From: Escherichia coli
Lineage (GTDB): Bacteria; Pseudomonadota; Gammaproteobacteria; Enterobacterales; Enterobacteriaceae
NCBI RefSeq assembly: GCF_003018115.1
Contig: NZ_CP027457.1
Reading direction: 5' to 3' (one strand)
DNA length: 64,000 nt
The translations under genes and the position numbers were made by a program. The notes below the pieces were generated by a model, which had not been told where the DNA came from, made no database searches, and saw only the letters and a program-made list of their open reading frames with translations. Positions 6,523 through 33,051 of the stretch are shown here, one piece after another; position 1 is the first letter of the stretch; every line of letters starts with the position of its first letter.

Positions 6523-6564
6523 CGTCCAGATACTGAACATTCTAATTTTTAGCATGTGATCCCT

Positions 6565-30368: not shown

Positions 30369-30491
30369 AGCGTTTTCCCACAGGTGACTTACTATAACCG
30401 TAGCAAATTCTGCGGCTCTGGCTATGCTCGAGAAAATTCCATAAAATGCATTTCAAATATACTTTATAAATTAAACAAAATGAGTAAGAAG

Positions 30492-31484
30492 ATGCAGAGC
30501 GATAAAGTGCTCAATTTGCCGGCAGGCTACTTTGGTATTGTGTTGGGGACGATAGGGATGGGATTTGCCTGGCGCTATGCCAGCCAGGTTTGGCAGGTCA
30601 GCCACTGGTTAGGGGATGGGCTGGTGATTCTGGCGATGATCATCTGGGGATTATTGACTAGCGCATTTATTGCCCGACTCATACGCTTTCCGCATAGCGT
30701 GCTGGCGGAAGTTCGCCATCCAGTGCTGAGCAGTTTTGTGAGTTTGTTTCCGGCAACGACGATGCTGGTGGCGATTGGTTTTGTTCCGTGGTTTCGCCCA
30801 CTGGCGGTGTGCCTGTTCAGTTTTGGTGTCGTGGTTCAGTTGGCTTATGCCGCCTGGCAAACTGCGGGATTATGGCGCGGATCTCACCCTGAAGAAGCTA
30901 CCACGCCTGGACTGTATCTGCCGACAGTTGCCAACAACTTTATCAGCGCAATGGCCTGTGGTGCGTTGGGCTACACCGACGCCGGTCTGGTGTTTTTAGG
31001 CGCAGGCGTTTTCTCATGGCTAAGCCTTGAACCTGTGATCTTGCAGCGTCTGCGCAGTTCGGGAGAATTACCCACGGCACTGCGGACATCACTCGGCATT
31101 CAGCTCGCTCCTGCGCTGGTGGCCTGTAGTGCCTGGCTGAGCGTCAACGGCGGCGAGGGTGACACGCTGGCGAAAATGCTTTTCGGTTATGGGCTGCTGC
31201 AACTGCTGTTTATGCTACGTCTGATGCCATGGTATCTCTCCCAGCCATTTAATGCTTCATTCTGGAGTTTCTCGTTCGGCGTATCTGCACTGGCAACCAC
31301 CGGTTTGCATCTGGGGAGTGGCAGCGATAATGGATTTTTCCATACGCTGGCGGTGCCGCTGTTTATCTTTACCAATTTTATTATTGCAATACTGCTCATC
31401 CGTACTTTTGCGCTTCTGATGCAGGGAAAATTGTTAGTCAGAACTGAGCGCGCCGTTTTAATGAAAGCAGAGGACAAAGAATGA
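30492..31484 (+). CDS. tehA: tellurite-resistance / TDT-family anion channel protein
   Basis: Internal ATG giving [27 protein letters not shown]..., 330 aa, 10 TM. Confidence 0.9.
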
Positions 31485-32074
31485 TCATTCGTGACGAAAA
31501 CTATTTTACTGATAAATATGAATTAACCCGCACACACTCTGAAGTACTGGAAGCGGTGAAAGTGGTTAAACCGGGTAAAACGCTGGATCTGGGCTGTGGC
31601 AATGGTCGTAACAGTCTTTACCTGGCAGCCAATGGTTATGATGTTGACGCATGGGATAAAAATGCCATGAGTATCGCCAACGTCGAGCGCATTAAATCTA
31701 TTGAAAATCTGGATAATTTACACACCCGGGTCGTTGATCTGAATAACCTCACATTTGATGGACAGTACGATTTTATTCTTTCGATTGTGGTACTGATGTT
31801 CCTTGAGGCTAAAACCATCCCAGGGCTGATTGCCAATATGCAACGTTGCACGAAACCTGGTGGTTACAACCTGATTGTGGCGGCGATGGATACCGCTGAT
31901 TATCCATGTACCGTCGGCTTCCCGTTTGCCTTCAAAGAGGGAGAATTACGTCGATATTACGAAGACTGGGAGATGGTGAAATACAATGAGGACGTCGGCG
32001 AGCTGCACCGCACCGACGCCAACGGTAATCGTATTAAACTGCGTTTCGCCACGATGCTGGCACGTAAAAAATGA
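31481..32074 (+). CDS. tehB: SAM-dependent tellurite methyltransferase
   Basis: 197-aa ORF overlapping tehA stop (ATGA); methyltransferase motif [11 protein letters not shown]. Confidence 0.9.
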
Positions 32075-32235
32075 CCCGGTAAGAACAAAGCGCGTGAAAA
32101 TTCCCCACGCTGAGATGGTTTACTGTTCTTCTTTTCGGTAAGCATATTTTTTATCGAAGGGATGTGAAATTAATCACAGTAGTCGAAGTTTTTTAGCAGC
32201 TTAACTTACTGAAATTTAACTACTGATGATTGACT

Positions 32236-32285
32236 TAGCCCCTTTTTCGGCATTGACGATGTCGTCTGAAAAGGGGCTGAAAAAT
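32236..32285. repeat. long inverted repeat upstream of ydcL (AGCCCCTTTT ... AAAAGGGGCT, 10-bp arms with about 20-nt spacer)
   Basis: Read directly from sequence; sits in an AT-rich intergenic region with a TATAAT -10 element at 32353-32358. Confidence 0.3.
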
Positions 32286-32377
32286 TTATTTTCACCAACA
32301 CTTTTTTTTGCCACAACACGAAGCGGCGCTTTTTGCTATAACTTAAAAAGTAATATAATCATCTCAGGAAACTATTC

Positions 32378-33051
32378 ATGCGTACCACATCATTTGCGAA
32401 AGTTGCAGCTTTATGCGGCTTGTTGGCTCTGTCTGGTTGTGCCTCTAAAATCACCCAGCCAGATAAATATTCTGGTTTTTTAAACAATTACTCTGATTTA
32501 AAAGAAACAACCTCGGCTACAGGTAAACCGGTTTTACGTTGGGTAGACCCGAGTTTTGATCAAAGCAAATATGACAGCATCGTCTGGAACCCAATCACTT
32601 ATTATCCGGTACCGAAACCTTCGACCCAGGTAGGGCAGAAAGTTCTGGATAAAATTTTGAACTATACCAACACCGAAATGAAAGAAGCGATAGCGCAGCG
32701 TAAACCACTGGTTACCACCGCTGGGCCGCGTAGTCTGATTTTCCGTGGGGCCATTACCGGTGTAGATACCAGCAAAGAAGGGCTGCAATTCTATGAAGTG
32801 GTTCCTGTTGCATTAGTGGTTGCGGGGACGCAAATGAAATGGCTACAGGCCACCGTACCATGGATACTCGCCTCTATTTTGAAGGTGAGCTGATTGATGC
32901 AGCGACTAATAAACCGGTTATCAAAGTCGTTCGTCAGGGCGAAGGTAAAGACCTGAATAACGAAAGTACGCCAATGGCTTTCGAAAATATTAAACAAGTT
33001 ATTGATGACATGGCGACCGATGCCACCATGTTTGACGTTAACAAAAAGTAG
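32378..33051 (+). pseudogene. ydcL: lipoprotein gene disrupted by a 5-bp tandem duplication (AAATG AAATG)
   Basis: Signal peptide plus lipobox (LALSGC); frame breaks at 32832-32841, so the ORF track splits it into 32378-32893 and 32839-33051; removing one AAATG copy restores one continuous 222-codon frame. Confidence 0.7.

Follow-up and report, generated by a model that had tools for sequence, protein, structure and literature searches.

In E. coli, Rho-dependent transcripts have been found to end at stable stem-loops that lack a U-tract and are followed by a mild excess of C over G (Dar & Sorek 2018, PMC6061677). Such stem-loops block PNPase and RNase II once transcription has terminated diffusely further downstream, and terminators may switch from one type to the other merely by a changed uridine content (PMC6061677). 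Two other described systems are close to the element reported here, namely the canonical intrinsic terminators and the REP/BIME palindromes that stabilise the 3' ends of mRNAs.

The element is an inverted repeat between tehB and ydcL, located in a 64-kb stretch of E. coli DNA that was analysed as a whole and is called the window below. Like the stem-loops of Dar & Sorek, the hairpin that it encodes is stable, lies on the coding strand past the last gene, has no U-rich tract and is followed by more C than G; in line with the expected switching, related species carry a version with a U-tract in the same slot. It differs from those stem-loops in being known from its sequence alone, in its unusual length (20 bp, -25 kcal/mol), in the A-run behind it and in the distance of only about 100 nt to the next start codon. 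With canonical intrinsic terminators it shares the operon-end position and the GC-cored hairpin, in a slot in which terminators are called in Yokenella, Trabulsiella and Atlantibacter. In contrast to these, it has no proximal U-tract but GAAAAA and then a T-rich run that starts 7 nt past the stem, and a T-run and an A-run are located inside the stem arms (GCCCCUUUU...AAAAGGGGC), which reverses the order of A-tract, stem and U-tract. As an intergenic palindrome that could block 3' exonucleases it resembles REP/BIME elements; unlike them, it is present once per genome and lacks the REP consensus, so that a repeated extragenic palindrome of this or a similar kind was rejected.

Results

The inverted repeat and its occurrence

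The earlier note on this DNA had described an inverted repeat with 10-bp arms and a spacer of about 20 nt within 32236-32285. Both arms are indeed found inside this span; they are 100% complementary to each other, and the spacer measures 22 nt (Table 1). The exact pattern of arms and spacer occurred in none of 100 dinucleotide shuffles. Perfect inverted repeats of at least 10 bp with a spacer of 3-30 nt gave 17 raw matches (9 distinct) in the window, compared to a mean of 1.9 raw matches in 50 dinucleotide shuffles. Since such repeats also arise in shuffled sequence, a lone 10-bp repeat does not by itself exceed chance. The eight further perfect inverted repeats in the window have arms of 10-13 bp and spacers of 6-28 nt and are located at 6564, 7633, 12451, 17348, 18280, 36016, 38779 and 46968.

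Table 1. Features of the tehA-ydcL region in the window (all coordinates refer to the window).
Feature	Position	Strand	Basis or remark
tehA	30384-31484	+	
tehB, last gene of the tehA-tehB unit	31481..32074	+	ORF list; 98% identical to annotated K-12 TehB
tehB 3' untranslated spacer	32075..32234	+	Intergenic comparison of 45 tehB-ydcL loci
Full RNA hairpin	32235..32280	+	13-pair outer helix, 3-nt bulge, 7-pair inner helix, 3-5 nt loop
5' arm of the inverted repeat, AGCCCCTTTT	32237..32246	+	Pair and pattern search
3' arm of the inverted repeat, AAAAGGGGCT	32269..32278	+	Pair and pattern search
Tail GAAAAATTTATTTT	32279..32292	+	A-run in place of a U-tract; T-rich run displaced by 6 nt
C-rich, G-poor block including TTTTTGCCACAAC (32305-32317)	32293..32333	+	Escherichia-invariant; conserved across genera
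TGcTATAAC, extended -10-like, C at -13 (sigma-S-favoured form)	32334..32342	+	Cross-genus conservation
TATAAT of the earlier note	32354..32359	+	Conserved within Escherichia only
ydcL (DUF3313 lipoprotein)	32378..33051	+	ORF list

The stretch with the repeat was found in 5406 of 5426 complete E. coli genomes (approximately 99%), at a median of one place per genome, and the window contains one match as well. The conservation across strains for which the earlier note had called extends through the genus, as the repeat is kept from E. coli to E. albertii. A private T-to-G change at 32258 is located in the hairpin loop of the window and creates GACGATGTCGTC; all seven E. coli sequences compared have T at this position, and the 79-nt stretch is matched perfectly in none of the 5406 matching genomes. 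The private G together with the missing perfect match implies that the lineage of the window lies outside this collection of complete genomes or is rare within it. In E. coli ET210 (locus L003, 1555-2680, corresponding to about 32273 of the window), an IS1 copy interrupts the 3' arm of the hairpin and is accompanied by a duplication of its target, which implies that at least one natural strain tolerates a disrupted hairpin.

No annotated feature is present at the site, MG1655 included. A search against all Rfam families at a permissive threshold gave no match better than E = 2.5; all matches were far under the gathering scores and at chance level only, to eukaryotic snoRNA models and similar ones. 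Two other candidates were rejected. A link to IS609 downstream of ydcL does not hold, as strain RM19259 is devoid of IS609 yet keeps the hairpin. A small protein encoded by the ORF that starts from the ATG at 32226 and runs through the hairpin was dismissed by reading the aligned sequences, because its frame differs between the window and K-12 through a 1-nt indel in a T-run, and because the substitutions within Escherichia are mostly non-synonymous, with E. albertii having ATA in place of ATG.

Fold, strand preference and pairing within Escherichia

The RNA of the + strand folds into a hairpin of 20 pairs with -25.6 kcal/mol and z = -5.17, a value matched by none of 200 shuffles. Its inner helix has seven pairs in the window and six in other E. 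coli, and the hairpin is separated by 162 nt from the preceding tehB stop and by 97 nt from the following ydcL ATG. Folding of the - strand yielded -18.1 kcal/mol in the window, and the respective values for K-12 were -25.4 kcal/mol (+ strand) vs -16.7 kcal/mol (- strand). The fold of the - strand is thus weaker by 7-9 kcal/mol because several pairs of the + strand are U·G.

In an alignment of 12 Escherichia sequences that covers E. coli phylogroups, cryptic clades and E. albertii, standard pairs account for 93.8% of the pair cells. The changes within the stem keep the helix, with C to U (yielding U·G), U·G to C-G and U-A to U·G, and two pairs are changed on both sides; variants include GCUCC/GGGGC in strain E69 and a U·G to C-G change in strain MOD1. 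Rescue of pairing by U·G works on the + strand only. The covariation within Escherichia is weak, its observed values being reached by 24-27 of 500 shuffles, and since these controls are marginal, Escherichia alone provides no proof of structural selection. The hexamer ATTGAC occurs twice, at 32229 and 32252, and is invariant in the 12 sequences; an alternative inner helix UUGAC/GUCAG can account for the second copy. Overall, these sequence comparisons support the view that the repeat is the DNA image of a structure formed at the RNA level on the + strand.

The sequence behind the stem

The stem is followed by GAAAAA and then by TTTATTTT (32285-32292), in which seven of eight bases are T. The statement of the earlier note that no U-tract follows the repeat therefore applies to the proximal tail and has to be amended for the T-rich run further on. 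Our terminator scan, which asks for at least five T in eight bases starting 0-2 nt after the stem, did not call the hairpin as a terminator in the window. Of the two properties of an intrinsic terminator that show in the sequence, the hairpin has the stable GC-rich stem-loop downstream of a gene on the transcribed strand; a U-rich tract of 7-8 nt directly 3' of the stem is absent. The tail looks like an A/T-rich, UP-like tract ahead of the ydcL promoter, and it occupies the position of CTTTTTGCAATTTGTGC in Enterobacter and of AGAWAAAATTGTGC in Citrobacter.

In the 99 nt after the hairpin (32279-32377), C makes up 0.20 and G 0.11 of the bases; the excess of C over G, taken from this one locus, weakly supports a candidate rut region downstream of a protective 3' stem-loop. 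With respect to the fold and the terminator scan, the hairpin likewise agrees with the definition of the Rho-dependent type of protective 3' stem-loop given in PMC6061677.

The tehB-ydcL spacer and the ydcL promoter region

The proportion of invariant positions within Escherichia is 90-100% at 32295-32377, 70-75% in the hairpin and 5-65% in the first part of the spacer. The segment between tehB and the hairpin, the lowest part of this conservation profile, occurs in Escherichia only and is deleted in Escherichia sp. MOD1-EC7003. The C-rich, G-poor block behind the tail belongs to the ydcL upstream region and is a candidate for a stretch on which Rho could load. Of the -10 candidates, TGcTATAAC is the only one conserved across Enterobacteriaceae, where it is found as TTTGCTATAAC (32332-32342 in the window) in most of the 80 loci that were compared; it is the likely ydcL core promoter. 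The TATAAT that the earlier note had placed at 32353-32358 does exist, shifted by one position (Table 1), and is specific to Escherichia rather than shared across genera. A SELEX peak of the sigma-S holoenzyme has been reported in the tehB-ydcL spacer (PMC5493296); after conversion from older MG1655 coordinates, its centre is near the core promoter, although the resolution does not suffice to tell the peak apart from the hairpin. The ydcL gene itself is frameshifted in the window by a 5-bp tandem duplication (AAATG) at 32832-32836 relative to K-12, resulting in a truncated ORF of 171 aa and a remnant of 70 aa.

Further sequence signals were observed in the Escherichia-only part of the spacer. 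Perfect CRP-consensus half-sites, TGTGAaattaaTCACA, are located at 32163-32178, 59 nt upstream of the hairpin. They form the only perfect TGTGA-N6-TCACA in 64 kb (0.07 expected). Between E. coli and E. albertii the half-sites do not vary, and Escherichia sp. MOD1-EC7003 has lost them by deletion. A promoter scan of the window identified no sigma-70-like promoter on the + strand upstream of the hairpin. On the - strand, a sigma-70-like promoter with 9 of 12 matches, TTCACA-16-TATGCT (32168..32141), overlaps the CRP-type site, and a terminator-like hairpin at 32110..32092, consisting of GCGTGGGGAATTTTCACGC followed by GCTTTGTTCT, is found approximately 25 nt past the expected start of this promoter. 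Together, the two could give rise to a tiny RNA antisense to the 3' end of tehB. The terminator-like hairpin is poorly conserved in cryptic clades.

Comparison across Enterobacteriaceae

A scan of 100,044 species genomes for YdcL yielded 80 loci from Enterobacteriaceae. The ydcL gene immediately follows tehB in Escherichia, Citrobacter, Salmonella, Kluyvera, Trabulsiella, Yokenella, Atlantibacter, K. pneumoniae and others; it does not in most Enterobacter, in Leclercia, Lelliottia and Raoultella and in the K. oxytoca group. In Escherichia and in most genera with the order tehB-ydcL, the spacer has a dominant + strand hairpin whose end is 82-118 nt away from the ydcL ATG, in most cases 95-104 nt, and in a few genera with longer spacers, e.g. 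Atlantibacter and K. pneumoniae, about 150-220 nt. Outside Escherichia, the hairpin begins 1-25 nt past the tehB stop. Where a different gene is located upstream, its own hairpin with a T-run occupies the same slot in most genera. The terminator scan called canonical intrinsic terminators in the slot of Yokenella, Trabulsiella and Atlantibacter and none in that of Citrobacter or of the window, and one Enterobacter example remained just under its T-count threshold. A proximal T-tract is absent in Escherichia, Citrobacter and Salmonella. The motifs TTTTTGCCACAAC and TGcTATAAC are conserved across genera and located downstream of the hairpin slot.

The arm sequence of E. coli is confined to Escherichia, and unrelated hairpins take its place elsewhere. 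In Citrobacter and Salmonella, this is CTGCGTTCAGCA...TGCTGAGCGCAG, followed by AGAWAAAATTGTGC, a hairpin that is unrelated in sequence to that of E. coli yet lies equally far from the conserved ydcL motifs. Eight of the nine pairs of its stem show compensatory changes on both sides, and 95.3% of the cells are paired among 19 species. This covariation was reached by none of 500 shuffles, and sliding the partner reduced pairing to 19-50%. Because compensatory changes keep the pairing, this structure is selected even in the absence of a U-tract. In many of its pairs, a U of the 5' arm faces a G, and these U·G pairs would be C·A mismatches on the other strand. Pairs that form on the + strand only favour an RNA transcribed in the direction of tehB and disfavour a sequence-specific DNA operator.

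Two additional observations concern the spacers outside Escherichia. In the loci L009-L083, approximately 15-45 nt upstream of ydcL (e.g. 2955-2975 in L029), a conserved palindrome-like motif, TGCATATCTGCA, GCATTTGTGCA or GCATACTTGCA, is located between TGCTATAAC and the ydcL ribosome-binding site, where Escherichia has AAAAAGTAATATAATCATC; this motif may be an operator or a 5'-UTR hairpin that was lost in Escherichia. In Enterobacteriaceae bacterium RIT714 (L037), the canonical terminator of tehB is followed by GGAAGGTGGACATTAA, a remnant of the 3' end of the gene that is located upstream of ydcL in Enterobacter. The remnant suggests that tehAB was inserted next to ydcL.

Discussion

The comparisons presented here show directly that the hairpin exists, on which strand it preferentially folds, where it is located and that its structure is conserved. 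We consider it probable, with appreciable room for other readings, that the inverted repeat encodes the 3'-end stem-loop of the tehAB mRNA, of the Rho-dependent kind that lacks a U-tract, and that it serves as an exonuclease barrier and boundary element. According to this proposal, the tehA-tehB transcript would extend on the + strand into the hairpin, which would fill the terminator slot between the upstream transcription unit and a ydcL promoter region of about 100 bp. Given the loss of the proximal U-tract, efficient release of RNA polymerase by the hairpin alone is unlikely. The polymerase would rather be released further downstream, either by Rho acting on the C-rich, G-poor stretch or by leaky termination with read-through, and 3'-to-5' exonucleases would then trim the RNA back to the hairpin and thereby set and protect the 3' end of the tehAB mRNA. 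The 3' ends of tehAB would thus be expected to gather at about 32280-32283. The conserved ydcL motifs lie downstream of the hairpin, which for this reason separates the upstream unit from the promoter block of ydcL. A point against the proposal is that Rho has only about 100 nt in which to act before the ydcL start codon; as no more than this distance separates the hairpin from ydcL, read-through is possible and may be what actually happens. Also against the proposal speak the 162 nt from the tehB stop in Escherichia, where an internal promoter served by the conserved CRP-type site might place the hairpin in a ydcL leader, the weak covariation within Escherichia and the tolerated IS1 insertion. 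The searched supplements of Adams 2021, TERMITe 2025 and SMRT-Cappable-seq 2018 list no 3' end or TSS for tehB or ydcL, and the searched literature contains no datum on the Rho-dependence of either gene. Full-text literature on tehB in connection with terminator, RNase III or Rho provided nothing but the unvalidated prediction of a small RNA, Ssr15, that is considered below.

The nearest rival explanation holds that tehAB ends at an intrinsic (Rho-independent) terminator that is weak or leaky and would still release some polymerase at the displaced T-rich run, thus setting a partial read-through into ydcL. A strong GC-cored hairpin on the coding strand in the terminator slot, the accumulation of T from 7 nt past the stem and the canonical terminators in the same slot of other genera are all compatible with it. 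However, GAAAAA directly follows the stem, the sequence fails the T rule of the scan, the proximal U-tract is a defining requirement of this class (PMC6061677), and Citrobacter and Salmonella are likewise devoid of a T-tract at this place, which leaves this explanation unlikely. The absence of the U-tract could also indicate a neutral relic without a function today, be it a terminator that has decayed or a palindrome that arose by chance; chance alone should yield about two raw perfect 10-bp inverted repeats in 64 kb, one strain carries IS1 inside the hairpin, and the covariation within Escherichia is weak. Against this, E. coli and E. albertii both maintain the stem next to a spacer that diverges, and the counterpart in Citrobacter and Salmonella is kept by compensatory changes despite its missing U-tract, so that we regard a relic as very improbable. 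A small RNA of the - strand that includes the hairpin is the explanation to which we give hardly any credence. Ssr15, a computational prediction for Shigella flexneri, spans the spacer on the strand opposite to tehB (PMC4782007, Table 1), and the - strand of the window carries the promoter-like and terminator-like sites mentioned above. Yet Ssr15 is listed there without confirmation by RT-PCR, the fold of the - strand is considerably weaker, with U·G pairs turned into C·A mismatches, and the two sites are located to the left of the hairpin and would exclude it from their product.

Two further explanations would assign the repeat to ydcL, and the earlier note had suggested either a regulator binding site or an RNA structure in a long 5' leader. 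For a double-stranded DNA operator, at which a dimeric regulator bound to the two 10-bp arms controls ydcL, speak the perfect and nearly invariant arms across Escherichia, their distance of about 55-115 bp to the candidate ydcL -10 elements downstream, and the repeated, invariant ATTGAC. An operator half-site should be conserved wherever the promoter is; however, the arm sequence is absent outside Escherichia, where TTTTTGCCACAAC and TGCTATAAC, the promoter motifs of ydcL, persist. Moreover, Citrobacter and Salmonella conserve pairing instead of sequence, with U·G pairs that form on the + strand only, a 22-bp spacer between 10-bp half-sites is an atypical geometry, and the second ATTGAC is explicable by the alternative inner helix. 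The binding site of the earlier note was for these reasons not upheld, and we judge an operator to be very unlikely. The same low likelihood applies to a long ydcL leader that starts at a distal, Escherichia-specific promoter and perhaps depends on the CRP-type site. The rarity of this perfect site and its conservation in Escherichia are in favour of such a leader, and so is the higher conservation of the region from the site to ydcL compared with the 70 nt that directly follow tehB. In contrast, the + strand between the site and the hairpin has no sigma-70-like promoter, and a T-run between them varies in length (T5 in K-12, T6 elsewhere), which argues against a fixed spacing of an activator. 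Escherichia sp. MOD1-EC7003 keeps the hairpin without the region of the CRP-type site, and the equivalent hairpin in other genera abuts the upstream stop codon, leaving no room for a promoter. The hairpin was thus placed neither between a transcription start and the ydcL start codon nor, given the lack of an Rfam match, in a known RNA family as would be expected of a leader RNA or riboswitch. Of the second suggestion of the earlier note, the RNA structure is borne out by the strand asymmetry, the U·G pairs and the compensatory changes, and the ydcL leader is not, as the conserved ydcL motifs are located downstream and a promoter is missing upstream.

Regulation of ydcL by the hairpin as a control site is therefore probably not its role. 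A more elaborate function, in which the hairpin is an actively maintained element, either as a regulated switch of read-through or processing that came about after the loss of the U-tract and couples transcription of the tellurite-resistance genes tehAB to the sigma-S lipoprotein gene ydcL or as the 5' structure of a CRP-dependent distal ydcL leader that arose from the 160-nt insertion, seems improbable to us. The hairpin that we favour as the 3'-end stem-loop of tehAB is real, conserved and ordinary, and most likely a member, not annotated so far, of the known class of operon-end RNA hairpins.

The finding opens no new question. Its value for annotation is that it locates where the tehAB unit ends and where the control region of ydcL begins, and that TGcTATAAC is indicated as the conserved ydcL promoter element rather than the TATAAT that is confined to Escherichia. 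For the family, the locus provides a clean comparative example of a terminator slot in which only some enterobacterial genera have a U-tract, with the stem still kept by compensatory changes. This variation of the slot is in keeping with a drift of terminators between intrinsic and Rho-dependent modes.
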